Assembly: GCA_016181045.1 (NCBI GenBank)
Contig: JACPAB010000004.1
Coordinates: 1-61,722, forward strand
Reading direction: 5' to 3'
Length of the DNA: 61,722 bases
From: Candidatus Yanofskybacteria bacterium
Lineage (GTDB): Bacteria > Patescibacteriota > Minisyncoccia > 2-02-FULL-40-12 > GWA2-44-9
In this document: positions 2,503 through 60,240 of the stretch, piece after piece
How positions within the stretch are numbered: the stretch's first letter is position 1
How the letters are laid out: each line of letters opens with the position of its first letter
Translations under genes and position numbers: made by a program
The notes under the pieces: model-generated
Told to the model about the DNA's origin: nothing
Databases searched by the model: none
What the model saw: only the letters and a program-made list of their open reading frames with translations

Positions 2503-4746
2503 CTATTGAGGCCAGGATTCAACGAGAAGTAATTTTTTATTCTTAATCGGCAGTTTCGAGTAAATTTCCTCGGTTACGAACGGCATGAAGGGGTGCAGGA
2601 GCTTCAGCGATGTTGTTAGTATCTCCAAAAGCATCCTTTGGGCCGATATTTTTATGGCCGGGTCTTCGCTGGCTAACTTTGCTTTGCTTTCTTCCACCAC
2701 CTTGTCCGCAAATGCGTGCCAGACATAATGGTATATTTCTTCGGCAGCCAGATATAGCCGGTAGTTTTCCATATGTTCGGTAATGCCTTTGACGAAAACT
2801 CCGAGTTCGGCAAGGATTTTTTTGTCTTCGGGGGCAAGGCAGGCCTCCATTGTGTCCGAAGCGTCATCCGGGACGCTCATTAAAACAAAGCGGGCGATGT
2901 TCCAGAGCTTGTTGGCAAAATGCTTGTAGGCCTTAACCTTGTCAAAACCGAAGTTGCCGTCGTTGCCCGGCGCAATGCCGACCAAGACCGACATTCTTAA
3001 TGCATCCGTTCCGTATTGGTTTATCACGTCGGTCGGCTCTATCCCGTTATCCAAGGACTTGGAGAACTTCCGGCCTTTCGCGTCGCGCAAAATCCCATGC
3101 AGATAGACGGTCTTGAATGGTATCTCTCCCAGCAAAAATCCGCTCATCAGTATCATTCTCGCGACCCAGAAGAAAAGGATCTCATATCCGGGGTTCATGA
3201 ACGTGGTCGGGTGATATGTTTTAAGATCGGATGATTTTTCGTCCGGCCAGCCCAAAGTCGAGAACGTCCAGAGAGCGGAAGAGAACCAAGTGTCCAAGGT
3301 ATCGGGGTCCTGGGTGAACTTTGCGTCGCAAAACTCGCATCCCGGTTCGGTATCGGAAACAACGAATTCTTTGCATTTAACAATATCGTCTTCGTGGCCC
3401 AGCCGAGGGGCACATTTCGGTTCGTGGTGCCAAACCGGAATGCGATGGCCGTACCAAAGCTGGCGGCTTATGTTCCAGTCGCGCAGGTTATCTATCCAGT
3501 GGAAGTATGTTTTTTTGAACCGGTCGGGCAATATCTTTATCTGGTCATTCTCCACGCTCTTCTTCATTATCTCTTTCAGTGTCGTTTTAGAACCGCTCTT
3601 GATATCGCTGATGGAGGACTTTTTAATTTTGAATTCTTTGTTGACCGCGACGAACCACTGAAGTTTTGGCAGAGGTTCTATCGTTCCTCCCGAACGGTCG
3701 GCTATGCTGATGTTAACTTCCGTCTCTTCTTCTTTGGAAAGCAGGTTGTTGTCTCTAAGCCACCGAACAACGATTTCTCTGGCTTCTTTTGTTTTCTTTC
3801 CTTCAACAAGAGAACCGGCCGTATCGGTCATTCTTGCGTATTCGTTTATGACCTGAACCATCGGCAGGTTGTGGCGCTGGGCTATTTCGGAGTCAGTGAT
3901 GCTGTGGGCCGGAGTAACCCCAACGGCACCGGTGCCGAACTCCGGGTCTATCGCTTCATCGGCAACAATTTTTATGTGTAATTTAGTTCCGGCAAACTCA
4001 ACGTCATATTCTTTGCCAATATATTTTTGGTAGCGTTTGTCATCGGGATGGGCGGCTACTGCCGTATCACCGACTTTGGTTTCTGGTCTTGTTGACGCTA
4101 TCTCGATGGGGAAGTCCTTTGAATATCGGAATGTATAAAGAAGCCCTTTTTCCGGCCTATGTTCTACCTCGTCATCAGAAACGGACGTTTGGCCTTTCGG
4201 GTCCCAGTTTATTACCCGATAGCCGCGATATATCAGGCCGGCATCATACATTCTTTTGAATGCGGTGCGGACTGCCAAATTCCGCTGGGCATCCATGGTG
4301 AATGCTTCGCGGGTCCAGTCCAAAGACGCGCCCATCTGGCGTATCTGCTTCTGCATGACGCCCCTGCTTGCGGCGACGAAATCCTCTACTTTTTTTACGA
4401 ACGCTTCACGTCCGATGTCGTGGCGGTTCTTGCCCTCTTCTTTGATGAGTATCTTTTCTACCTTGGTATTTGTGGCGATAGCGGCATGGTCGGTGCCGGG
4501 AACCCAGAGCGTTTTTTCGCCCTTCATCCGGTGGTAGCGGACCACGGCATCCTGGATCGAGTATTCCAGCGCATGTCCCAAGTGGAGCGTTCCGGTGGCG
4601 TTGGGAGGGGGGAGGACGGCGCTGAAAATATCTTTGCGTATTCCCGGTAGATTTTCGGGCGCAAAATACCCGCTATCTTCCCAGAGTTTGTATATTTTAT
4701 CCTCAACTTCTTTTGGGTTGTATGCTTTTGGAAGTTCTGTTGACAT
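2503..4746 (-). CDS. valS: valyl-tRNA synthetase (short form, no C-terminal coiled coil)
   Basis: 747 aa; HIGH-type PPPNATGTLHLGHA, KMSKS-type KFSKSLDN, CP1 editing motifs TRPETKVGDTAVAAHP and GTGAVGVTPAH. Confidence 0.92.
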   Translation of the reverse strand: MSTELPKAYNPKEVEDKIYKLWEDSGYFAPENLPGIRKDIFSAVLPPPNATGTLHLGHALEYSIQDAVVRYHRMKGEKTLWVPGTDHAAIATNTKVEKILIKEEGKNRHDIGREAFVKKVEDFVAASRGVMQKQIRQMGASLDWTREAFTMDAQRNLAVRTAFKRMYDAGLIYRGYRVINWDPKGQTSVSDDEVEHRPEKGLLYTFRYSKDFPIEIASTRPETKVGDTAVAAHPDDKRYQKYIGKEYDVEFAGTKLHIKIVADEAIDPEFGTGAVGVTPAHSITDSEIAQRHNLPMVQVINEYARMTDTAGSLVEGKKTKEAREIVVRWLRDNNLLSKEEETEVNISIADRSGGTIEPLPKLQWFVAVNKEFKIKKSSISDIKSGSKTTLKEIMKKSVENDQIKILPDRFKKTYFHWIDNLRDWNISRQLWYGHRIPVWHHEPKCAPRLGHEDDIVKCKEFVVSDTEPGCEFCDAKFTQDPDTLDTWFSSALWTFSTLGWPDEKSSDLKTYHPTTFMNPGYEILFFWVARMILMSGFLLGEIPFKTVYLHGILRDAKGRKFSKSLDNGIEPTDVINQYGTDALRMSVLVGIAPGNDGNFGFDKVKAYKHFANKLWNIARFVLMSVPDDASDTMEACLAPEDKKILAELGVFVKGITEHMENYRLYLAAEEIYHYVWHAFADKVVEESKAKLASEDPAIKISAQRMLLEILTTSLKLLHPFMPFVTEEIYSKLPIKNKKLLLVESWPQ

Positions 4747-6499: not shown

Positions 6500-6519
6500 A
6501 ATCTTTGTGTAAATATTCG

Positions 6520-6553
6520 TCGTATTTATTTCACGATCGTGAAATAAATACGA
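6520..6553. repeat. 34-bp perfect palindrome centred on ACGATCGT
   Basis: TCGTATTTATTTCACGATCGTGAAATAAATACGA read directly; lies between the PaaX-like stop and the tsaD start. Confidence 0.95.
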
Positions 6554-6586
6554 TATTGATTTTGGTTATTTGGTCTTAACTGTTAA

Positions 6587-7183
6587 CTATAAGTCAAACA
6601 TTCTTTTTAAGTCCTTGTCGTATTCTATGTCATAAGTAGTTATAAATCTCGTGTACTGCTTTATGTTTTCTTCAAACAGCATATCTTTTATAAACTTTGG
6701 AACAGGGTAGGGAAATATCCAAGTGCTTTTTTGAAACTCTTTAAAACCGACTGTTTTCAATATCATTCTTATGTAGTCGCGGTAAGCCCTCTTTTTTTCT
6801 GGTACATCAAAGAATACAATTCTCCATTTCTTGTCCCATTTTTGTTTCTCTGATTTATATACTCTTGATTCAGTGTTAAGGTAGGCAAAAAATGCCTCTT
6901 TCTCCCCCTGTTTGGTCAAACGATAAATGCCGTCGCTGGTCTTTTCGACAACCCCACGCCTTTTTAGCCCATACAATGAGTTTCGATAGTAGTTTCTGTA
7001 TAAACTCGTGTAGCCGTATTTTTTGGCATATTGAGGCGGAAAGAATGATTGGGCGGTAATTTTGCCGGTTTCCCGCAGTACTGCCAGAATAATCTTTGTT
7101 GCAGACAAGAACTTTTTCTTAGCTCCCTGTTTATTAATATTATTCACAATCTGATTTATACTACGATCGTGAAAAAAATACAA
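6587..7183 (-). CDS. PaaX-family-like transcriptional regulator (wHTH plus PaaX C-terminal domain)
   Basis: 198 aa; wHTH-like LKRRGVVEKTSDGIYRLTKQG; C-terminal WDKKWRIVFFDVPEKKRAYRDYIRMILKTVGFKEFQKSTWIFPYP resembles the PaaX WDGxW...GF...W..P pattern; TTG start. Confidence 0.6.
   Translation of the reverse strand: MYFFHDRSINQIVNNINKQGAKKKFLSATKIILAVLRETGKITAQSFFPPQYAKKYGYTSLYRNYYRNSLYGLKRRGVVEKTSDGIYRLTKQGEKEAFFAYLNTESRVYKSEKQKWDKKWRIVFFDVPEKKRAYRDYIRMILKTVGFKEFQKSTWIFPYPVPKFIKDMLFEENIKQYTRFITTYDIEYDKDLKRMFDL
7151..7182. repeat. ACGATCGT-centred half-palindrome overlapping the PaaX-like start
   Basis: CTGATTTATACTACGATCGTGAAAAAAATACA; left arm matches the 45807-45842 copy, right arm matches the 6520-6553 copy. 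Confidence 0.85.
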
Positions 7184-7237
7184 CTTTGAATTTGTCGATT
7201 TTTATGGTAGAATTTAAGTTGTATAAAAATAATAAAT

Positions 7238-7309
7238 GGCGCCATCGTCTATCGGTTAGGACTCATGATTTTCAATCATGCAAGGAGGGTTCGACTCCCT
7301 CTGGCGCTG
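7238..7309 (+). tRNA. tRNA-Glu (anticodon UUC)
   Basis: Hand-folded cloverleaf: acceptor GGCGCCA/TGGCGCT, anticodon stem CATGA/TCATG with loop TTTTCAA, T arm GAGGG-TTCGACT-CCCTC; 72 nt, CCA not encoded. Confidence 0.9.
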
Positions 7310-9827: not shown

Positions 9828-10104
9828 GGGGATGAAAGGCCTCGACGAAGTTTGACAATCCGATGGATGCTAAGAGTGGACGGCCGGTTAACCACTATAA
9901 TAACCCCGGTCAACCAATTTAGGTGCCAATTATTCACCTAATTACGCTTACGCCTAACATCGTTTAGGTAAAGCCATCCTGCCATGATGCTCACTAATGG
10001 ATTTTGCTCGATTTTATACCTTCAGGTGAAATACCAAATCAGCTATCTTAGTAGATGTTCGTCGGATTCAATTTCGGACCCGGGTCCAATTCCCGGCATC
10101 TCCA
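9828..10104 (+). ncRNA. ssrA: tmRNA (ssrA), short form
   Basis: 5' GGGGATGAAAGGCCTCGACG pairs with 3' CATCTCCA, including the G3-U70 wobble. T arm is CCGGG-TCCAATT-CCCGG. Internal tag ORF 9925-9957 reads GCC AAT TAT TCA CCT AAT TAC GCT TAC GCC TAA (ANYSPNYAYA). smpB lies 420 bp away. Confidence 0.85.
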
Positions 10105-10110
10105 CAACAA

Positions 10111-16380: not shown

Positions 16381-19296
16381 ATGGCTGAATTCAACTTTAA
16401 CGAGAAAGAAAAGAAAGTACTGGATTTCTGGGAGAATAGGAAGATATTCGATAAATCACAGGAAATTCGCAAAAAGGCGAAGCGTTTTGTTTTTTTTGAA
16501 GGCCCTCCGACCGCGAACGGCTTGCCCGGCATCCACCATTTTCTGGGCCGGGCCTACAAAGATCTCTTTTGCCGCTACAAGACAATGCGCGGATATTTTG
16601 TTTTGCGCAAAGCGGGCTGGGACACTCACGGATTGCCGGTTGAGATAGAAGTCGAAAAAGAACTTGGGTTCAAGAACAAGAAAGACATCGAGCGATACGG
16701 CATAGACAAGTTCAACAAGAAGGCCAAGGAGAGCGTCTGGAAATATAAGAACGAATGGGAGCAGATGACGAAAAGAATGGGCTTCTGGCTCGATATGAGC
16801 GACCCCTATATCACATACAAGAACCAATACATTGAATCGCTCTGGGCGATAATCAAGAAGATTTGGGACAAAAAACTGCTTTTTCTCGCTCATCGGGTTG
16901 TGCATTTCTGCACGAGGTGCGGTACGCCGTTATCGTCGCACGAAGTAGCGCAAGGATACCGCACAATAACTGACAGGTCAGTTATTGTGAAATTCCAAAT
17001 TACAAATGACAAATTACAAAAAAATTTCAAAATCCAAAATCCAAATGCCAAAACTTATATTCTTGCGTGGACAACCACGCCGTGGACGTTGCCCGGGAAT
17101 GTTGCTTTGGCGGTTGGGAAAGATATTGATTATGCGGTTGTCGAATTGAATGGAGAAAACCTTATTTTAGCCAAAGATTTAGTAGAAAAAGTTTTTGGAT
17201 CTATAACCTATAACCTAAAACCTATAACCTACAAAGGTTCTGACCTCATTGGCCTGGAATATGAGCCGTTATTTGATATTGAAAAGTTAAAGTCGGAAAA
17301 CTCATACAGAATTTACGACGCCGACTTTGTTTCCACTCAAGAAGGCACTGGCGTCGTCCACACCGCGGTGATGTATGGAGAAGACGATTATGACTTGGGA
17401 ACTAAAATCGGTTTGCCTAAATTCCATACCGTAGATGAGCAAGGGAGATTTATTGGTGTTAGCAAAGAATTGGACGGCAGATATGTTAAAGATCCCGAAA
17501 CCGAAGAATTGATAATTGCAAAATTGAAAATTGAAAATTTAGTGTTCAAAATCGAAGATTTTGAACACGAGTATCCTTTCTGCTGGAGATGCGATACGCC
17601 GCTTTTATATTACGCCAAGGAATCCTGGTTTATAAAAATGTCGGCGATAAACAAGGAACTGCTCAAGAACAACCGGAAAATAAACTGGGTGCCGGAGCAT
17701 ATCAAAGACGGAAGATTCGGCCAGTGGCTGAAAGAGGGGAAGGACTGGGCCTTCTCACGGGAAAGATATTGGGGCACTCCTTTACCGATATGGAAGTGCG
17801 GTGATTGCGGAGATTTTACATTGGCGGGGTCGTTGGAAGACCTGGAAAAGAACAGATACAAGCCGAAGAACGAGTTTTATATTTTGCGGCACGGCCACAG
17901 CGAGAAGAACGGCAACGGTAAATGGGCTGAAATAATAAGTTCCCAGTTGAAAAACGATAAATATCATCTGACCGAAGACGGCAAGAAACAGGCAAAAGGG
18001 GTAACAAAGAAATTAAAAAAACTGGGCAAGCCGGACCTGATAATCTCGTCGCCGTTCAAAAGAACCAAAGAAACCGCGCACCTGGTCGCGGAGGCGTTCG
18101 GTCTGAAGGTCAGTATCGACGAGAGGATAGGTGAGTTTAACCACGGCTCGATATGCGAAGGCAGGACCAGCCATGTTTGCGGTTTGGAAAAAGAGCCGCG
18201 AAAATGGGACACCAAATACGGCGATGAAGAAAGCTGGGCGGACCTGCGCCGAAGGATGTCGCAGGCATTGAGAGACATCGATTCCAAGCACGAAGGCAAG
18301 AGGATACTTTTGGTAAGCCACGGCGACCCGATCTGGATATTGGAGACGTTCACTCTCGGACTGACCAAAGAAGAGGCCGTTCCGACAAGAGAAGAGTTAT
18401 ATCCGGCACAAGGAGAACTCAAGAAATTCGAGCTGAAAAACTGGCCGTATGATGACGACGGCGAATTAGATATGCACCGGCCGTACATAGATCAGATAGC
18501 GCTGAAGTGTCAGAAGTGCGGAGGCAAGATGGCAAAGATACCGGACCTGATAGATGTCTGGTTCGACTCCGGGGCGATGCCCTATGCTCAATGGCACTGG
18601 CCGTTCGAGAACCAAAAGACATTCAAGGAACAATTCCCGGCAGATTTCATTGCGGAGGGAATAGACATGACAAGAGGGTGGTTTTATACTTTGCTATCCG
18701 TAGCCACTCTTTTGGGAAAAGGCGCACCGTATAAGAATGTAATTTCCTACAGCCATGTATTGGACGATAAGGGCCAGAAAATGTCCAAGTCGAAAGGAAA
18801 TACCGTTTCTCCTTTTGCGGTGATGGAAAAGTTCGGCGCCGACGCGCCCCGGTGGTATTTCTATGCGGTTAACGAACCGGGGGACTATAAATTATTCAAC
18901 GAGAAGGATGTCGAGACCAAACTGAAAGGATTTTTCGGCACGCTTGATAACTGTGTCAGATTTTATGAATTATACTCGTCCGAAGAAGGATTTAAGATTT
19001 ACGATTTAAGATCTACGAATCTGTTAGACAAATGGATTTTGTCAAAATTTTACGGCCTTGTTTCAAATGTTTCCGTAAATCTTGATAAGTATGAACCCAC
19101 GTCGGCGGCAAGGGCGGTTGAGAAATTTGTTGTCGAGGACCTGTCTAACTGGTGGTTGAGGCGGTCTCGCAAGAGGAAAGACGCCCTGGGACTTTTGAGG
19201 TTTGTTCTGCTTGAACTTGCTAAAGTTATTGCTCCTTTCACGCCCCAAAGCCGGGACCGAAAGCGTTCACTTGCACGACTGGCCGAAGGTAAATAA
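16381..19296 (+). CDS. ileS: isoleucyl-tRNA synthetase, main body; reading frame breaks near 19245
   Basis: PPTANGLPGIHHFLGRAYKD (HIGH), WTTTPWTLPGN (editing), KMSKSKGN, zinc knuckles; the last 16 residues (QSRDRKRSLARLAEGK) look out of frame. Confidence 0.9.
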   Translation: MAEFNFNEKEKKVLDFWENRKIFDKSQEIRKKAKRFVFFEGPPTANGLPGIHHFLGRAYKDLFCRYKTMRGYFVLRKAGWDTHGLPVEIEVEKELGFKNKKDIERYGIDKFNKKAKESVWKYKNEWEQMTKRMGFWLDMSDPYITYKNQYIESLWAIIKKIWDKKLLFLAHRVVHFCTRCGTPLSSHEVAQGYRTITDRSVIVKFQITNDKLQKNFKIQNPNAKTYILAWTTTPWTLPGNVALAVGKDIDYAVVELNGENLILAKDLVEKVFGSITYNLKPITYKGSDLIGLEYEPLFDIEKLKSENSYRIYDADFVSTQEGTGVVHTAVMYGEDDYDLGTKIGLPKFHTVDEQGRFIGVSKELDGRYVKDPETEELIIAKLKIENLVFKIEDFEHEYPFCWRCDTPLLYYAKESWFIKMSAINKELLKNNRKINWVPEHIKDGRFGQWLKEGKDWAFSRERYWGTPLPIWKCGDCGDFTLAGSLEDLEKNRYKPKNEFYILRHGHSEKNGNGKWAEIISSQLKNDKYHLTEDGKKQAKGVTKKLKKLGKPDLIISSPFKRTKETAHLVAEAFGLKVSIDERIGEFNHGSICEGRTSHVCGLEKEPRKWDTKYGDEESWADLRRRMSQALRDIDSKHEGKRILLVSHGDPIWILETFTLGLTKEEAVPTREELYPAQGELKKFELKNWPYDDDGELDMHRPYIDQIALKCQKCGGKMAKIPDLIDVWFDSGAMPYAQWHWPFENQKTFKEQFPADFIAEGIDMTRGWFYTLLSVATLLGKGAPYKNVISYSHVLDDKGQKMSKSKGNTVSPFAVMEKFGADAPRWYFYAVNEPGDYKLFNEKDVETKLKGFFGTLDNCVRFYELYSSEEGFKIYDLRSTNLLDKWILSKFYGLVSNVSVNLDKYEPTSAARAVEKFVVEDLSNWWLRRSRKRKDALGLLRFVLLELAKVIAPFTPQSRDRKRSLARLAEGK
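17872..18462 (+). other. histidine-phosphatase (PGAM-like) domain inserted inside IleRS
   Basis: EFYILRHGHSEKN (RHG motif), SSPFKRTKETA, LLVSHGDPIWIL (second His); lies between WKCGDCGD...LEDLEK and LDMHRPYIDQ...DVWFDSG of IleRS. Confidence 0.75.
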
Positions 19297-33720: not shown

Positions 33721-33796
33721 GGGGCCGTAGCGTAACCTGGATTATCGCGTCTCCCTGTCACGGAGAAGATTGCGGGTTCAAATCCCGTCGGCCCCG
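33721..33796 (+). tRNA. tRNA-Asp (anticodon GUC)
   Basis: Acceptor GGGGCCG/CGGCCCC, anticodon stem TCTCC/GGAGA with loop CTGTCAC, T arm GCGGG-TTCAAAT-CCCGT; 76 nt. Confidence 0.88.
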
Positions 33797-35411: not shown

Positions 35412-38891
<3,480 letters not shown>

Positions 38892-43612: not shown

Positions 43613-45121
43613 ATGGAATATAAGCCCGTCATTGGTCTGGAAATACACGCAGAACTTAATACAAAGACAAAAATGTTTTGCGATTCTTTAAATGATCCCG
43701 ACGAGAAACATCCCAATGTTAACGTCTGCCCGGTTTGTATGGGCCATCCGGGAACGCTTCCGGTTACAAACTTTGAAGCTGTTAAAAAAGTCATAATAGC
43801 CGGTCTTGCTTTGAATTGCCAAATAAATAAAGGAACATTTTTTGAAAGAAAGAACTATTTCTATCCCGACCTGCCCAAGGGCTACCAGATATCCCAATAC
43901 CAAAAGCCACTTTGCCAAAACGGAGTTTTGGAAATCCCAAATCCCAAATCCCAAATCCCAAAGAAGATAAGAATTACTCGAATCCACTTAGAAGAAGATG
44001 CGGGGCGTTTATACCATCTTCCCGGCAAGGACTACTCCCTCGTGGATTTTAACCGTGCCGGAGTGCCTTTAATGGAATTGGTGACCGAACCGGACTTTGA
44101 AAGCGGCCAAGAAGTCCGTAAATTTGCCGAAGAACTGCAGTTGATCTGGAAATACCTCGGGGTCTCCGATGCCGACATGGAAAAGGGACAGCTCCGGATC
44201 GAAGTGAATATATCACTTCGACCCGAAATTCCAAATTCCAAATTCCAAATTCCAAAATTGGGAACCAAAGTGGAGATAAAAAACTTGAACTCGATAAAAT
44301 TCGCGGCGGACGCGGTGGACTACGAGATCAAGAGACAAACCGAACTTCTGGATAAGGGAGAAAAAATAGTTCAGGAGACCCGCGGTTGGGACGAGAACAA
44401 AAAAGCGACATTCAGCCAGAGGTCTAAAGAAGAGGCCCATGATTACAGATATTTTCCGGAGCCGGACCTGCCGCCTCTCAAATTTACCGATGCCGAGATA
44501 GCCGTCATCAAAGAGGGGATGCTTGAACTGCCAGTCCAACGCCGGGCCAGATTCAAAGAGCAATATGGATTACCTGACACCGACATAAACTTATTCGTAG
44601 CATCTAAATCGTTGGGTGATTATTTTGAGCATGTCGCCAGCGAACTCCTGTCTTTTGATAAATTAGCCCATCTTAAAAAACCGCCGGTTGATGAACAAGG
44701 CAAGTTATTCAAACTGGCCGCAAACTACATTATTACCGAGTTAAAGCGCATGGCCGAGGCGGTATCTGCTGATCCGGCAGACACAAAAATTACGCCGGAA
44801 ATGTTTGCCGATTTGGTTGTTAGGGTATTCCATGGCCAAATTTCATCCAGTGGAGCCCAAACCGTCTTGAAAGAGATGTTTGAAACGGGTGTGTCGCCGG
44901 AGAAAATAATCAAAGATAAAGACCTGGAACAGGTTTCGAGTGTTGGAGAATTGGAAATGGCTGTAGATAAAGCTATTGCGGAAAACCGGCAAGCGGTAGA
45001 GGATTATAAAAAAGGAAAAGAGGCCTCGCTTAAATTTTTGATAGGCATGGTAATGAGGGAGTCCAAGGGTAAGGCCAACCCGCAGGTCGTTGCCGAAATA
45101 TTAAACCAGAAATTAAAATGA
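43613..45121 (+). CDS. gatB: Asp/Glu-tRNA amidotransferase subunit B
   Basis: YKPVIGLEIHAELNTKTKMFC...NVCPVCMGHPGTLPV, RIHLEEDAG, KNLNS, C-terminal YqeY-like domain. Confidence 0.92.
   Translation: MEYKPVIGLEIHAELNTKTKMFCDSLNDPDEKHPNVNVCPVCMGHPGTLPVTNFEAVKKVIIAGLALNCQINKGTFFERKNYFYPDLPKGYQISQYQKPLCQNGVLEIPNPKSQIPKKIRITRIHLEEDAGRLYHLPGKDYSLVDFNRAGVPLMELVTEPDFESGQEVRKFAEELQLIWKYLGVSDADMEKGQLRIEVNISLRPEIPNSKFQIPKLGTKVEIKNLNSIKFAADAVDYEIKRQTELLDKGEKIVQETRGWDENKKATFSQRSKEEAHDYRYFPEPDLPPLKFTDAEIAVIKEGMLELPVQRRARFKEQYGLPDTDINLFVASKSLGDYFEHVASELLSFDKLAHLKKPPVDEQGKLFKLAANYIITELKRMAEAVSADPADTKITPEMFADLVVRVFHGQISSSGAQTVLKEMFETGVSPEKIIKDKDLEQVSSVGELEMAVDKAIAENRQAVEDYKKGKEASLKFLIGMVMRESKGKANPQVVAEILNQKLK
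43932..43959 (+). repeat. four perfect tandem copies of AAATCCC inside gatB
   Basis: Counted directly; encodes part of EIPNPKSQIPKK. Confidence 0.95.
44226..44253 (+). repeat. four perfect tandem copies of AAATTCC inside gatB
   Basis: Counted directly; encodes part of EIPNSKFQIPKL. Confidence 0.95.
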
Positions 45122-45357
45122 TTAAAAAATTATTAGCAAAATTAGTCGGTTTTCGGGAGCAAAGAGCGAATTTTCCCGCTACGCGCTTCGAGGCAGAACA
45201 AAAAGACGAAGCCAAGTTAGCCAGAGAACGCCTCGAAGATATCATGAGAAGCCGGGATAAAAAGTATGTTTCCGAGCGGACAATTCCGGCCGAAGAAGAC
45301 ATTTTAGGTCCCAGTGATTCGGCCCTCAAGGGCGAGAAGCAAGAAACTTCCGAATAA
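45118..45357 (+). CDS. hypothetical small charged protein
   Basis: 79-aa ORF overlapping the gatB stop (ATGA) and converging on the miaA 3' end. Confidence 0.4.
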   Translation: MIKKLLAKLVGFREQRANFPATRFEAEQKDEAKLARERLEDIMRSRDKKYVSERTIPAEEDILGPSDSALKGEKQETSE

Positions 45358-46543
45358 TTTCCCCGGCTTCTTTTTGGTTCTTGATCCCCTCGACTTCGCT
45401 CGGGGCAAGCCAATGTATCTCTTTATTCCTTTTGAACCAGGTCATCTGACGTTTTGAATACTTGATGATATCTCTCAATAAATTCTGGTATTCTTGAGAA
45501 TTTGAGAATGATTTTGGAGTTCTTTGTTTTCTATATTTTCTTAGCCATCCGGAAATCCACCGGTATTCAAGGCCTAACTCATCAAGTCGTTTCCAACTGA
45601 CTCCTTGTTTGCCAGGTAGTGAATGTTCCGGAGTTTCTCGGGCGACAAAGTCGCAGCCGGAACATCTACTACCTGGTTTGTGTAGGTTTTTAACTTCTTT
45701 TATCATCCCTTGTTTAAGACGTTCGTCTAGACGCTTTTTAATTTTGACGGCCAATTTTTCTTTACCCGGATTTAGTCCAAGCCACAAGACATCATAATTT
45801 CCAACCATCTGATTTATACCACGATCGTAGTATAAATCAGATTTATTTTTGAGAGCTTTTTTGATAGATTTTCTGGCCATTGCGATTTCTACGGCTCTTA
45901 TTAACCGGCGCTTGTTTTTGGGGTCAATCGTTTTTGCTCGTTCCGGGTCCAGTTTCTTTAATTTCTCAAATAATTTCTCAATTTCTAAATTTCCTAATCC
46001 CTTTCTTAATTTTTTGTTTGGCGGAACTTCGGCAACCGACATTCGGCCAAGCAAAACATCAATATAAAATCCCGTACCGCCGACAATAATGGGGATTTTG
46101 TTTTTGGTCAAGATTTCTTTTATGGCTTTTTGCCCCAACCTTTTAAAGTCGTCAGCGGTAAACTGTTTTTTAGGACTTGCAACATCAATAAGGTAATGCC
46201 TTACTCCCTCTGAATAGTAATCTTGGTTTTGAATTTTGAATTTTGAATTTTGGGTTTGTTTAGGATTTATCCCTAGGCCTTCGGCCGGGATCCCGGTCGT
46301 CTTTGGCGACCTAGGGAGGATTTTGGATTTAGGATTTCTATCCCTTGGGACCTTTCCCGTTCCGACATCCATTCCGCGGTAAACCTGCCGCGAGTCGGCG
46401 GAAATTATTTCACCCTCACACCTATGCATAGGTGTGAGGGCAAGCCACTTCATTTTTCTCGCGATTTTTATAGCCAAATCCGACTTTCCCGAAGCCGTCG
46501 GACCGACAATGACAACTATTTTCGGCGCTTTGCCACCAATCAT
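45326..46543 (-). CDS. miaA: tRNA dimethylallyltransferase with multiple in-frame repeat insertions
   Basis: IVGPTASGKS P-loop, EIISADSRQVYRGMDVGTGK, HYLIDV, IPIIVGGTGFY; 405 aa versus about 300 typical. Confidence 0.88.
   Translation of the reverse strand: MIGGKAPKIVVIVGPTASGKSDLAIKIARKMKWLALTPMHRCEGEIISADSRQVYRGMDVGTGKVPRDRNPKSKILPRSPKTTGIPAEGLGINPKQTQNSKFKIQNQDYYSEGVRHYLIDVASPKKQFTADDFKRLGQKAIKEILTKNKIPIIVGGTGFYIDVLLGRMSVAEVPPNKKLRKGLGNLEIEKLFEKLKKLDPERAKTIDPKNKRRLIRAVEIAMARKSIKKALKNKSDLYYDRGINQMVGNYDVLWLGLNPGKEKLAVKIKKRLDERLKQGMIKEVKNLHKPGSRCSGCDFVARETPEHSLPGKQGVSWKRLDELGLEYRWISGWLRKYRKQRTPKSFSNSQEYQNLLRDIIKYSKRQMTWFKRNKEIHWLAPSEVEGIKNQKEAGEIIRKFLASRP
45612..45676 (-). repeat. 65-bp CCNGGTAGT-family hairpin element, copy 2 (in frame within miaA)
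   Basis: Plus strand CCAGGTAGTGAATGTTCCGGAGTTTCTCGGGCGACAAAGTCGCAGCCGGAACATCTACTACCTGG, flanked by TTTG on both sides; the AGA-first orientation is on the minus (miaA sense) strand. Confidence 0.9.
45807..45842. repeat. 36-bp ACGATCGT-centred palindrome inside miaA
   Basis: ATCTGATTTATACCACGATCGTAGTATAAATCAGAT (one central mismatch pair); encodes KSDLYYDRGINQM. Confidence 0.9.
46413..46440. repeat. 28-bp perfect palindrome inside miaA
   Basis: CCCTCACACCTATGCATAGGTGTGAGGG flanked by CA on both sides; encodes LTPMHRCEG. Confidence 0.95.
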
Positions 46544-52523: not shown

Positions 52524-52630
52524 AATTTTCAATTTTCAGTTTTCAATTTTCATTGAATGTATCAATTTTTCAATTTTCAAACATTGAATCATTGAAAATT
52601 TATTGTAAATTGTAAATTGTAAATTGTGAA
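52524..52630 (+). repeat. intergenic array of 7-nt tandem repeats (AATTTTC x4, TGTAAAT x3) with a CATTGAATCATT core
   Basis: Read directly between nusB and rnc. Confidence 0.9.
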
Positions 52631-52639
52631 TTTGACTCA

Positions 52640-58422: not shown

Positions 58423-58490
58423 CCCGGTAGTAGATTTTTTAAATGCGCAAAGCGCAAAAGCCGAAGGCAATTCAAAAATTCACTACCGGG
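58423..58490 (+). repeat. 68-bp CCNGGTAGT-family hairpin element, copy 3 (overlaps the relA/spoT stop codon)
   Basis: CCCGGTAGTAGATTTTTTAAATGCGCAAAGCGCAAAAGCCGAAGGCAATTCAAAAATTCACTACCGGG, flanked by TTCG and TTTG. Confidence 0.88.
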
Positions 58491-60240
58491 TTTGAGCAAT
58501 CGATTTTTTCCAAGAAGCAGTTAAAACTCTATTTTGATTTGTGTTTTTAACGTTAGGACAGTTTGCTACATGTATGGAGACGCCTCGGTTCAAGGTCATA
58601 TAGCCCCTTATCTTGTGATTGACGGTGGGATTGCAGCACCGCGCGAATTTATACAACAGCCCGCGTTGGCCCTGAATGATGGGTTCGCCCCGGGGGTCGG
58701 CTATTATAATATTCTTTTTTTTCTGTGTTTCGGCTTTTTGTTTTCCCTCGGCAAGCTCGGGACCTGCGGCGGGTTCTTGTTCTTTGAACCACGATCTTAT
58801 TCTTTTTTTTGCTTCGGCCGTTTTTACGAACTTAAGCCAATCAAATGACGGCTTTTTTTCTTTACCTTTCATTATTTCAACGACATCGCCGTTCTTAAGC
58901 TCGTAGTCGAAAGGAACTATTTTGTTGTTGACCTTGGCTCCTTTGGTGGCGTGGCCAAGGTCGGTATGTATGGCGTAAGCAAAATCGATCGGCGTTGCGC
59001 CTTCGGGCAGGTCTTTAACATCTCCTTTGGGGGTGAAGGCGAATATCCTGTTCTTGAAAAAATGGATTTTGATATTGGAAAGTCCTTCGCCGGGCCGGAG
59101 CTCCTTGAGCATTTTCTTTAATTGTGTGACCCATTGGATCTCTTTAACATTGGCTTGGGCTGTCCTTGTCTTGCTGCCTTCGCTATATGCCCAGTGGGCG
59201 GCAATTCCGTTCTCGGCGAACTCGTGCATATCGGCGGTTCGTATTTGGAGCTCGACTATTTTTCCTTTCTCGCAGAAGATAGTGGTGTGGAGAGATTGGT
59301 ATCCGTTCGGTTTGGGCAGGGCGATATAATCCTTTATCAGTCCGGGCAGAGGCCTGTAGTGCTTATGTATCACACCCAGAGCTTCATAACATGATTTTAT
59401 ATCCGGAACGATAATCCTCATTGCCACAAGATCGTATATCTTATCTAACCCCTTTTCTTTTCGGCTCATTTTTTGATACAAACTATAGAAATGTTTGGCC
59501 CTGGAATGCATATCGACAATTTTTATTCCGGCATCGGTCAGACACCTTTTTATTAGAGGACTCGTTCTGTCTATGTAGTTTCCGACATTTCTATATTTAT
59601 TTTTAACTTTTTGAACAAACTCGGAATATTCTTTCGGATAAACATAGGGGAATGCCATGTCTTCCAATTGACCCTTAAGCCGGCCCATTCCAAGCCGGGC
59701 GGCAATGGGGGCGTATATTTCCATTGTCTCGAGAGCGATTCTATTCTGGTCGGTTTTGTTCAGAAATTTCAATGTTTCCATGTTGTGATACCGGTCGGCC
59801 AATTTTATCAGAATAACCCGGATATCTTCGGCCATGGCGAATATCATCTTCTTTAGAGAATTCAAATGGTCCGTGTGGTTATTTTTGTTGGCTCGCCCTG
59901 AGCTTGCCGAAGGGTCGGAGTATTCTATCTTGCTAAGTTTGGTTACGCCGTCTACCAAAAAGGCGATTTCTTTTCCGAACTCTTTTTCCAGGTCGGCATG
60001 TGTCAGAGATGTGTCCTCGATGGTGTCATGAAGCAGGCAGGCGGCGATAGTGGTTGAATCCAGTCCGAGTTCGGAAAGAAAGCAGGCAACCTGCAACGGG
60101 TGAGTTATATAGGGTTCTCCGGAGAATCTTTTTTGTCCTTGGTGCGCTTTCTCTGAATATAAGCAAGCCCTTTTTATAAGAGCGCGATCTTTATCGTTAA
60201 ATGCAGGTTTGTCTAGTATTTTCTCAAGTATGTCGGACAT
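58483..60240 (-). CDS. bifunctional (p)ppGpp synthetase/hydrolase, RelA/SpoT family
   Basis: HD domain (HDTIEDT), synthetase motif DYIALPKPNGYQSLHTTI, TGS domain, Cys-rich C-terminal region; 585 aa. Confidence 0.9.
   Translation of the reverse strand: MSDILEKILDKPAFNDKDRALIKRACLYSEKAHQGQKRFSGEPYITHPLQVACFLSELGLDSTTIAACLLHDTIEDTSLTHADLEKEFGKEIAFLVDGVTKLSKIEYSDPSASSGRANKNNHTDHLNSLKKMIFAMAEDIRVILIKLADRYHNMETLKFLNKTDQNRIALETMEIYAPIAARLGMGRLKGQLEDMAFPYVYPKEYSEFVQKVKNKYRNVGNYIDRTSPLIKRCLTDAGIKIVDMHSRAKHFYSLYQKMSRKEKGLDKIYDLVAMRIIVPDIKSCYEALGVIHKHYRPLPGLIKDYIALPKPNGYQSLHTTIFCEKGKIVELQIRTADMHEFAENGIAAHWAYSEGSKTRTAQANVKEIQWVTQLKKMLKELRPGEGLSNIKIHFFKNRIFAFTPKGDVKDLPEGATPIDFAYAIHTDLGHATKGAKVNNKIVPFDYELKNGDVVEIMKGKEKKPSFDWLKFVKTAEAKKRIRSWFKEQEPAAGPELAEGKQKAETQKKKNIIIADPRGEPIIQGQRGLLYKFARCCNPTVNHKIRGYMTLNRGVSIHVANCPNVKNTNQNRVLTASWKKSIAQTR

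Follow-up and report, generated by a model that had tools for sequence, protein, structure and literature searches.

A 65-nt hairpin inserted in frame in miaA points to a small mobile element family in Patescibacteria

A hairpin element lies in frame in miaA

The window, i.e., the whole 61,722-nucleotide (nt) stretch of contig JACPAB010000004.1 (assembly GCA_016181045.1) from a Candidatus Yanofskybacteria bacterium, carries the tRNA-modification gene miaA and, inside this gene, the 65-nt hairpin element that is the subject of this study (Table 1). MiaA proteins are usually ~310–340 residues long; the window protein contains a stretch of 23 residues, PGSR...SLPGK, that is encoded by the element together with one copy of a 4-bp duplication. 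On the plus strand, positions 45608–45680 read TTTG, CCAGGTAGTGAATGTTCCGG AGTTTCTCGGGCGACAAAGTCGCAG CCGGAACATCTACTACCTGG, TTTG, with a centre of 25 nt between two 20-nt arms that are 90% complementary, so that the palindrome is imperfect. Read along the gene, the junctions are ..AAC CTA CAC AAA / CCA GGT AGT AGA ... CTA CCT GGC AAA / CAA GGA GTC.., and the 65-nt element plus one CAAA amounts to 69 nt, a multiple of three. With the element taken out, the empty site would read ..CACAAACAAGG.. RNA of either strand is predicted to fold into one long hairpin plus a small inner hairpin, at energies between -36 and -39 kcal/mol (z ~ -7); in 200 shuffles, no sequence folds equally well. The arm sequence is expected to match nowhere in the window by chance, and the inner hairpin, TGCGACTTTGTCGC, recurs in family copy L038 (L numbers denote loci). 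The analysis covers DNA sequence, its translations and models.

Table 1. Coordinates and hosts of the miaA insertion and of related element copies
Feature	Locus	Coordinates	Strand	Remarks
miaA, tRNA dimethylallyltransferase, 405 aa	window	45326..46543	minus	Pfam IPPT, E=2.3e-50; best homologues Yanofskybacteria MiaA
Hairpin element, 65 nt	window	45612..45676	minus	AGA-first strand = gene strand; covariance model R1, 65.4 bits, E=9e-14; alignment A5
Target-site duplication, copy 1	window	45608..45611		TTTG on plus, CAAA on gene strand; fits family Y-W-W-R
Target-site duplication, copy 2	window	45677..45680		TTTG
Long-stem arm	window	45612..45631		outer 9 bp, then conserved A.C / G.U mismatch pair, then 10-bp inner stem
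Complementary long-stem arm	window	45657..45676
Small inner hairpin GCGAC-AAA-GTCGC	window	45642..45654		in variable centre; RNA fold
Inserted 69 nt	window	45608..45676	minus	codons 290-312, PGSRCSGCDFVARETPEHSLPGK; translation
Second family copy	window	35418..35482	plus	67.3 bits; between duplicated TATG, 35414-35417 and 35483-35486
Third family copy	window	58423..58490	plus	CCCGG/CCGGG ends; covariance model, 43.5 bits
In-frame copy, MiaA	window
In-frame copy, CysRS	L040			insert splits catalytic domain, just before RPGWHIE
In-frame copy, CcdA/DsbD_TM membrane protein	L072
In-frame copy, DprA	L090			insert between Rossmann-like domain and winged helix
In-frame copy, YqeY	L047
In-frame copy, RNase HI	L124
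In-frame copy, ParB	L017			insert after dimerisation domain
Start-codon copy, gyrB	window, L098
Start-codon copy, infB	L022	430-493
Start-codon copy, trpS	L070
Start-codon copy, argS	L091
Start-codon copy, ftsW/rodA-like	L018
Other start-codon loci	L036, L056, L076, L099
Long copy	L114	6385-6519
Long copy	L064	509-646
Long copy	L108	10778-10894
Long copies	L087	3399-3532 and 7401-7535
Long copy	L047	7059-7192
Long copy	L046	9480-9612

The insertion is confined to one lineage and maps to a predicted loop

Deletion of the 23 residues yields ..VKNLHK/QGVSWKRL.., as in the homologue consensus xLxKQGVSWKRLD that emerged when 25 and 120 sequences were aligned. By source name, where one is given, nearly all of the 120 best MiaA relatives come from Patescibacteria, and the insert is found in 0/119 close homologues: by column count in the 120-sequence alignment, only the window protein has 23 extra residues, one homologue has four and 118 have none. 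Four additional residues occur at the loop in homologues P0006 and P0061, and this MiaA loop therefore tolerates a change in length. All 19 columns that are invariant over the 120 aligned sequences (window protein included) are retained in the window MiaA, and its gene contains no frameshift or stop.

The closest relative is a Yanofskybacteria protein with 65% identity. Its DNA, L129 (GCA_016185505.1), carries thrS, a hypothetical gene, miaA (3001–4236), a small open reading frame (ORF) and gatB in the same order as the window, and the two miaA genes are 71% identical in nucleotides. At the insertion site L129 reads CTG CGC AAA CAG GGG, with one CAAA and no element, and thus represents the orthologous empty site. 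Together, the 119 insert-free homologues and this empty site rule out an ancestral MiaA segment that was lost in other lineages; the miaA insertion is lineage-specific.

An AlphaFold2 model was built from the 120-sequence alignment (mean predicted local distance difference test (pLDDT) 77, predicted template-modelling score 0.75). Its confident core superposes on the solved MiaA structures 3exa, 3d3q, 3foz and 2zm5 with TM-scores, normalised to the target, of 0.67–0.78. Residues 296–311 have pLDDT below 50 and no secondary structure, and the insert is flanked by helices 280–288 and 317–323 at pLDDT 79–95. The model fits an excursion from a loop that separates two helices in MiaA's C-terminal part; the loop is probably exposed, and the insert-bearing enzyme may have kept its activity. 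The initial annotation had described a 23-codon in-frame hairpin in miaA flanked by a TTTG duplication, whose removal as 69 nt restores a normal MiaA loop. Its description proved accurate to the base in sequence and translation, the restored loop matches the homologue consensus, and its expectation of a lineage-specific insert agrees with the orthologue alignment; in the model, the insert maps to a predicted coil between helices.

The element belongs to a dispersed family with target duplications and a covarying stem

Family copies were sought with a seed pattern that fixes 24 terminal bases, i.e., the outer part of both arms, so that divergent copies are under-sampled; the third window copy, with its CCCGG ends, escaped the pattern. 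The pattern scan returned 24 loci in 185,579 species-representative genomes and 104 stretches in metagenome contigs. By record title, which is the source of all taxon labels used here, 23 of the 24 genome loci belong to Yanofskybacteria, Saccharibacteria, Parcubacteria or Patescibacteria. The same scan found no copy in the viral contigs of IMG/VR and hence gave no evidence for a phage vector. Removal of identical contexts, which partly collapses kinship by descent, left 102 non-redundant copies. Copies measure 60–86 nt (~61–80 nt in the genome scan), with an additional class of ~134 nt, and carry no transposase ORF. A covariance model recovers three copies in the window (Table 1).

Direct repeats of 3–5 bp flank 83 of the 102 copies (4 bp in 58, 3 bp in 19 and 5 bp in six), and the 4-bp repeats comprise 32 different 4-mers with the consensus Y-W-W-R (Y in 54/58, R in 49/58). 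The family ends read CCNNGTAGT...ACTACNNGG. Arms of 19–20 nt form a ~19-bp stem that contains an invariant GTAGT core near each end; the 20-nt arms are not self-complementary, and the variable centre holds a small hairpin of its own. One conserved A.C mismatch and one G.U pair make the two strands distinguishable, and we refer to them as AGA-first and GAA-first. Over 92 distinct copies, pairing holds in 99.5% of stem cells, and both sides have changed in 154 cells; 0/500 shuffles attain either figure, and slid controls collapse. The inner five pairs differ widely from copy to copy and still pair (UUCGAG/CUCGAA, UUCCGA/UCGGAA, UUGCAG/CUGCAA, UUUGAC/GUCAAA and others), and in copies obtained with the covariance model the outermost 4 nt covary too (CCAG/CTGG, CCGG/CCGG, CCCG/CGGG and CCGA/TCGG).

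Rfam searches with the element gave nothing at gathering thresholds; permissive mode returned only generic long hairpins (miRNA precursors, VrrA), far below threshold. A 5S-rRNA-like origin of the centre TGCCTGGCGGC was considered and dropped, as Rfam showed no 5S match. A profile made from element-peptide dimers and run against 5.8 billion proteins hit six short ORFs only and was uninformative.

[quoted passage not shown] We regard it as very probable that the family is a small non-autonomous, hairpin-forming, MITE-like mobile element that has spread through Patescibacteria (candidate phyla radiation, CPR) and that the miaA copy is a tolerated in-frame insertion. A limited literature library, in which absence is not proof, contained no description of MITE-like or in-frame palindromic elements in CPR/Patescibacteria; the family is apparently undescribed so far, in line with what the initial annotation had surmised for this lineage.

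In-frame copies recur in unrelated genes and share one reading frame

The positions of 103 copies were assigned with a crude gene call of non-overlapping ORFs of at least 80 aa: 57 copies are intergenic, 28 lie at or just inside the 5′ end of an ORF, 12 lie over a stop codon and six are internal. One further internal copy, in the RNase HI gene of L124, had been called as 5′, which brings the internal copies to seven (Table 1). In all seven hosts, Pfam domains lie on either side of the insert or span it. Each of the seven copies is free of stops, adds a multiple of three nucleotides when counted with its duplication, and is read in the frame CCA GGT AGT, that is, PGS. Three are AGA-first (PGSR...(E)LSLPG) and four GAA-first (PGSE...(E)LLLPG or ...TSTTW). 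The other open frame, QVV[E/K]V..., accounts for ~45% of open element frames and is used by none of the seven (P ~0.015 by our own arithmetic). The initial annotation had proposed that one orientation and one frame are kept; the frame is indeed the same throughout, but orientation is free. Were the element removed before translation, seven open copies in register would be expected at ~(1/3 x 0.6)^7, ~1e-5. Because removal or bypass would not require all seven to be open and in register, we infer that the in-frame copies are translated.

The in-frame copies encode central peptides of greater hydrophilicity than the frame-0 peptides of other copies (Kyte-Doolittle -0.78 vs 0.01, one-sided P=0.013, n=7 vs 123). 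In the AGA-first orientation, frame 0 is free of stops in 64 of 92 non-intragenic copies, as compared with 50.4 +/- 4.6 when centres are shuffled (P ~0.006, uncorrected for four tests and with copies that are not independent), and the other three frames are open as often as expected. For the family as a whole, the evidence of a frame maintained open is weak. The third frame contains a TAG in every copy and in both orientations, and at least 10 copies provide the TAG stop of an upstream ORF. Ten stop-overlapping copies overlap the ORF by exactly 8 nt, with the ORF ending ..CC AGG TAG; the third window copy supplies the last two codons and the stop, ..ACC CGG TAG, of a relA/spoT-like ORF (58483..60240, minus strand).

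The insert in CysRS is present in the L040 protein only, one cluster among 120 homologues; the 119 others lack it, including the next homologue at 76% identity. Deep retention of in-frame copies thus finds no evidence, each checked copy being confined to one lineage. The persistence that the initial annotation had expected by analogy with palindromic elements of Rickettsia was accordingly not borne out by the CysRS and miaA inserts.

A sub-family of copies sits at start codons

The second window copy had initially been placed inside gyrB, in the same AGA-first orientation as the miaA copy. The orientation stands, but the copy lies at the start codon and not within the gene: the site reads ..gaaaTATG/element/TATG GCC GAA AAA.., the gyrB ORF spans 35415..38891, and GyrB homology begins at the second ATG, which places the native start at 35484. 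Folded as RNA, the site forms a stem of -39 kcal/mol in which the two AUGs are base-paired to one another at the bottom. Since this copy is at a start codon and the upstream ATG of its counterparts elsewhere is often out of frame or stopped, it is no second example of a frame kept open. The copy is identical over 65/65 positions in L098 (252–316), where the first 251 nt of gyrB are 79% identical to the window (third codon positions 61%) and the upstream DNA cannot be aligned beyond ~15 nt; selection on the hairpin, gene conversion or re-insertion may account for this identity. Further downstream, GyrB contains a 434-residue intein-like insertion (36831–38132; ..SAGG/ ... GVFVHN/SSKSG..).

The copies located exactly at the start codons of many unrelated genes, among them essential ones such as gyrB, infB, trpS and argS, form a sub-family. 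Its members are short copies whose GCCTGGCGGC centre is followed by an A/T-rich run, together with most of the ~134-nt copies. They are flanked by duplicated TATG (or ATG) and are almost always AGA-first relative to the gene. At L022, L036, L070, L018 and L091, the upstream ATG is often out of frame (elements of 63–65 nt) or stopped inside the element; at some start-codon copies it is in frame. It is thus not a reading frame that is maintained at these sites. The 10.4-kb metagenome contig L087 carries at least six element copies, one of them exactly at the start of rplS (L19). It is conceivable, if doubtful, that the start-codon sub-family is a mobile translation- or transcription-control cassette under purifying selection and that in-frame hairpins are a general route to lineage-specific loops in CPR proteins. 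As such a cassette, the hairpin could hide or restore the spacing before the start codon, or act as a standby site or an outward promoter.

Other palindromes and repeats occur in miaA and elsewhere in the window

Three further palindromes lie in frame in the window miaA, with low-confidence AlphaFold2 segments in or beside them. A perfect 28-nt palindrome, CCCTCACACCTATG/CATAGGTGTGAGGG (46413–46440), covers approximately residues 35–44 (LTPMHRCEG); it occurs once in the window, and homologues are variable or gapped there. A 48-nt palindromic segment (46270–46317) with ends TCCCTAGG/CCTAGGGA and an inner part CCGGGATCCCGG encodes PRSPKTTGIPAEGLGI, is missing from homologue P0003, and lies between the low-confidence segments 73–79 and 90–106, partly overlapping them. 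The third belongs to a second palindromic repeat family with the core ATTTATNNCACGATCGTGNNATAAAT, found at 45807–45842, 6519–6559 and 7144–7184: two copies lie near gene ends, and one 36-nt copy is in frame in miaA (SDLYYDRGINQ), where it coincides with the low-confidence segment 233–247 and is shared with L129, which has the identical palindrome.

Low-complexity repeats of the AAATTC/AAATCC type are found at 46230–46262 in miaA, at 43931–43963 and 44225–44257 in gatB, and at 16989–17053, 2472–2504 and 52525–52633. The miaA repeat is translated as NSKFKIQNQ, the peptides NPKSQIPKK and PNSKFQIPK of the gatB product apparently derive from the two gatB repeats, and the stretches KSKILN and KFKIQN occur in other CPR MiaA proteins. 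The L129 MiaA has insertions of its own, one close to its N-terminus (PSFAKVSAGKQ..) and another, SPSFATSFVKTSKVKKATKG, eight codons upstream of where the window carries its insertion; peptides of the PTFAKASAGRQ type recur in homologues P0006 and P0011, which suggests another family of repeat-derived inserts. In homologue P0015, an N-terminal extension (..NRVVKVADLEKRQSRNSNFYYP..) resembles what a related element just upstream of the P0015 miaA would encode in its other open frame (QVVKV...NFYYL), and is probably an over-extended gene call. At gathering thresholds, the only Rfam matches in the window are a tmRNA (9828–10107) and two tRNA genes (7238–7309 and 33721–33796).

The family resembles RPEs, REPs and bacterial MITEs in different respects

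Rickettsia palindromic elements (RPEs; RPE-1 and relatives, Ogata et al. 2000/2002 as summarised in PMC10969869) are the parallel that the initial annotation had drawn, and it is an apt one, strengthened by the six further in-frame hosts CysRS, DprA, CcdA, YqeY, RNase HI and ParB. Both kinds of element are palindromic, inhabit lineages with reduced genomes, have an open frame in each copy, and lie in frame in unrelated conserved genes (seven here), where they add a peptide that would be compatible with the fold. RPEs, however, measure ~100–150 bp and occur in Rickettsia, whereas the present family measures 60–86 bp, occurs in Patescibacteria and has 4-bp duplications and a GTAGT core; this separation is drawn on size, host and duplications. 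The intragenic share also differs, with nearly half of the RPE-1 type copies of R. conorii being intragenic (PMC10969869) against 7/103 in our family.

Repetitive extragenic palindromic sequences (REPs) tagged with GTAG or CGTC, including head-to-head dimers and REPIN-like doublets, resemble the family in that a conserved GTAG lies close to either outer end of a long hairpin, TAG stops are donated, some copies are wholly intragenic and others lie at N-termini. Some GTAG-tagged REPs lie wholly within ORFs and encode 20–30 residues, many are found at ORF N-termini, and their GTAG termini often donate a TAG stop to the flanking ORF (Di Nocera et al. 2013; PMC3733652). REPs, however, are self-folding units of 20–40 nt for which no target duplications are reported, whereas the arms of the present family do not fold on themselves and have 4 nt outside the GTAG. 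Despite the shared tag, we rejected membership among REP head-to-head dimers on account of the 3–5 bp duplications at 83/102 copies.

Bacterial MITEs such as Correia/NEMIS, ERIC, RUP, Coxiella QMITE1/2 and those of Anabaena are, like the family, short, devoid of a transposase ORF, bounded by terminal inverted repeats, flanked by a duplication and dispersed, with occasional in-frame fusions and replacements of the 3′ ends of host ORFs. ERIC, BOX, Coxiella QMITE and Anabaena MITEs are known to carry ORFs or make fusions (PMC10969869, PMC5896051). Compared with these MITEs, the present family is among the smallest reported, its inner stem covaries although this is not needed for a transposase-binding terminal repeat, and its host lineage is new.

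Alternative readings of the miaA insertion

Two alternatives deserve the most attention. First, the insertion may have inactivated MiaA, leaving a young pseudogene that owes its open frame to the chance of an in-frame insertion alone. The perfect TTTG duplication and near-perfect arms do suggest that the event was recent, there is no relative above 65% identity in which retention after insertion could be seen, and miaA is non-essential in model bacteria. We nevertheless judge inactivation unlikely, as the columns invariant among the aligned homologues are intact in a gene without frameshifts or stops, the site is a loop of variable length predicted as coil between helices, the family occurs in frame in genes that cannot be lost, e.g., cysS, and its in-frame copies are biased to hydrophilic peptides.

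Second, and no more likely than the first, the hairpin may be kept for a role as nucleic acid with the peptide as a by-product, be it a pause site, an RNase III or stability determinant, an antisense terminator (gatB is convergent) or a protein-binding cruciform. The stem covaries strongly, but covariation is equally expected if mobility needs the hairpin; one sub-family is tied to start codons, and the gyrB-start copy is identical in two genomes whose adjacent coding DNA has diverged, yet copies as a whole lie in unrelated contexts and in both orientations. A T-rich stretch follows the miaA hairpin on the plus strand; against a role as nucleic acid, the miaA copy has no orthologous counterpart, and Rfam offers no family beyond the generic hairpin matches.

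It is very improbable that the element is removed, whether through splicing of the RNA or of the protein or through a ribosome that bypasses it from one of the duplicated AAA codons to the other; any of these would leave a normal MiaA. The insert does have the same AAA codon on either side, with a strong hairpin in between, and gyrB of the same genome contains an intein-like insertion. However, 65 nt is far below the size of group I or II introns and no Rfam intron matches; the 23 residues contain no intein motifs; no stop follows the take-off codon AAA, as one does in the bypass of phage T4 gene 60; and each of the seven intragenic copies has an open frame and a length divisible by three, which removal does not require. 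That a repeat-induced chimera put the element into miaA, as might be feared for a multi-copy repeat on a metagenome-type contig, is harder still to credit, since the miaA halves are colinear across the element, the 4-bp duplication is exact and the frame preserved, the three window copies differ in their centres and would not collapse, the order thrS, membrane protein, miaA, gatB is that of the orthologue, and comparable in-frame copies occur in independent assemblies.

Several points weigh against a MITE-like insertion tolerated in frame. A perfect duplication with intact arms suggests a young insertion that has spent little time under selection, and MiaA is dispensable in many bacteria, so that an inactivating insertion would not be purged quickly. 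AlphaFold2 has no evolutionary information on the insert and cannot judge the tolerance of an unprecedented one; we infer both translation through a -36 kcal/mol hairpin and the activity of the resulting MiaA. No autonomous element or transposase with the family ends was found in ~0.9 Mb of loci, in which ends 0.3–3 kb apart were sought, and the transposition chemistry is therefore deduced from the duplications alone. A GTAG core with a covarying stem is more typical of REPs and REPINs, which move as single-stranded hairpins without duplication. The crude gene calling and the under-sampling by the seed pattern count on the same side.

A proposed route of insertion

Under the MITE-like reading, the element would insert with a 4-bp (3–5 bp) duplication of a Y-W-W-R target, and this duplication would point to a cut-and-paste, DDE-type transposase supplied in trans. 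A Y-W-W-R target with a 4-bp duplication is presumably IS5-like, and we know of no cognate insertion sequence for the family. In an ancestor of the present genome, a copy would have entered miaA at ..CAC AAA/CAA.. in the stop-free frame CCA GGT AGT ... CTA CCT GGC, whose 69 nt would leave the gene open. The ribosome would then translate the element as 23 extra residues, with PGS and LPG ends around a mostly polar middle, and these would form a disordered excursion from the loop between two helices, the MiaA fold probably remaining intact. The miaA copy would thus be a survivor of selection and not an adaptation. Surviving copies would be those that landed between genes, at gene starts, at extreme 3′ ends, where the third-frame TAG ends the ORF, or in frame in tolerant loops; the observed positions may be what purifying selection has left of the insertions made by a fairly indiscriminate element.

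Candidate sources of the enzyme were considered and set aside. A pair of family ends in L103 (7695–9050) encloses ordinary housekeeping genes and no transposase. L087 encodes L19, a pseudouridine synthase, FtsK, a reverse transcriptase (RVT_1) and two helix-turn-helix proteins, which are 27% identical to each other and share a GEG motif that we read from the alignment as LAGLIDADG-like, and no transposase. A gene for a REP-associated tyrosine transposase (RAYT, Y1 type) was absent from the few ORFs examined, with no whole-genome protein scan made.

Implications for Patescibacteria

The genomes of CPR/Patescibacteria are very small and their recognised mobile elements few, and their proteins often contain unexplained lineage-specific insertions; the miaA locus suggests a source for some of the latter. 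One frame of the termini encodes Pro-Gly-Ser ... Leu-Pro-Gly and another contains TAG, so that an insertion will either terminate the ORF immediately or contribute a loop complete in itself. The finding introduces no new principle and extends the story of RPEs in Rickettsia and of intragenic REPs to a new superphylum. In practice, annotation pipelines may extend N-termini or call spurious ORFs through such elements, and the element can serve as a marker of strain-level variation in metagenomes. With its copies in essential enzymes (MiaA, CysRS, RNase HI and DprA), the family also provides a natural series of tolerated insertions that lends itself to testing.

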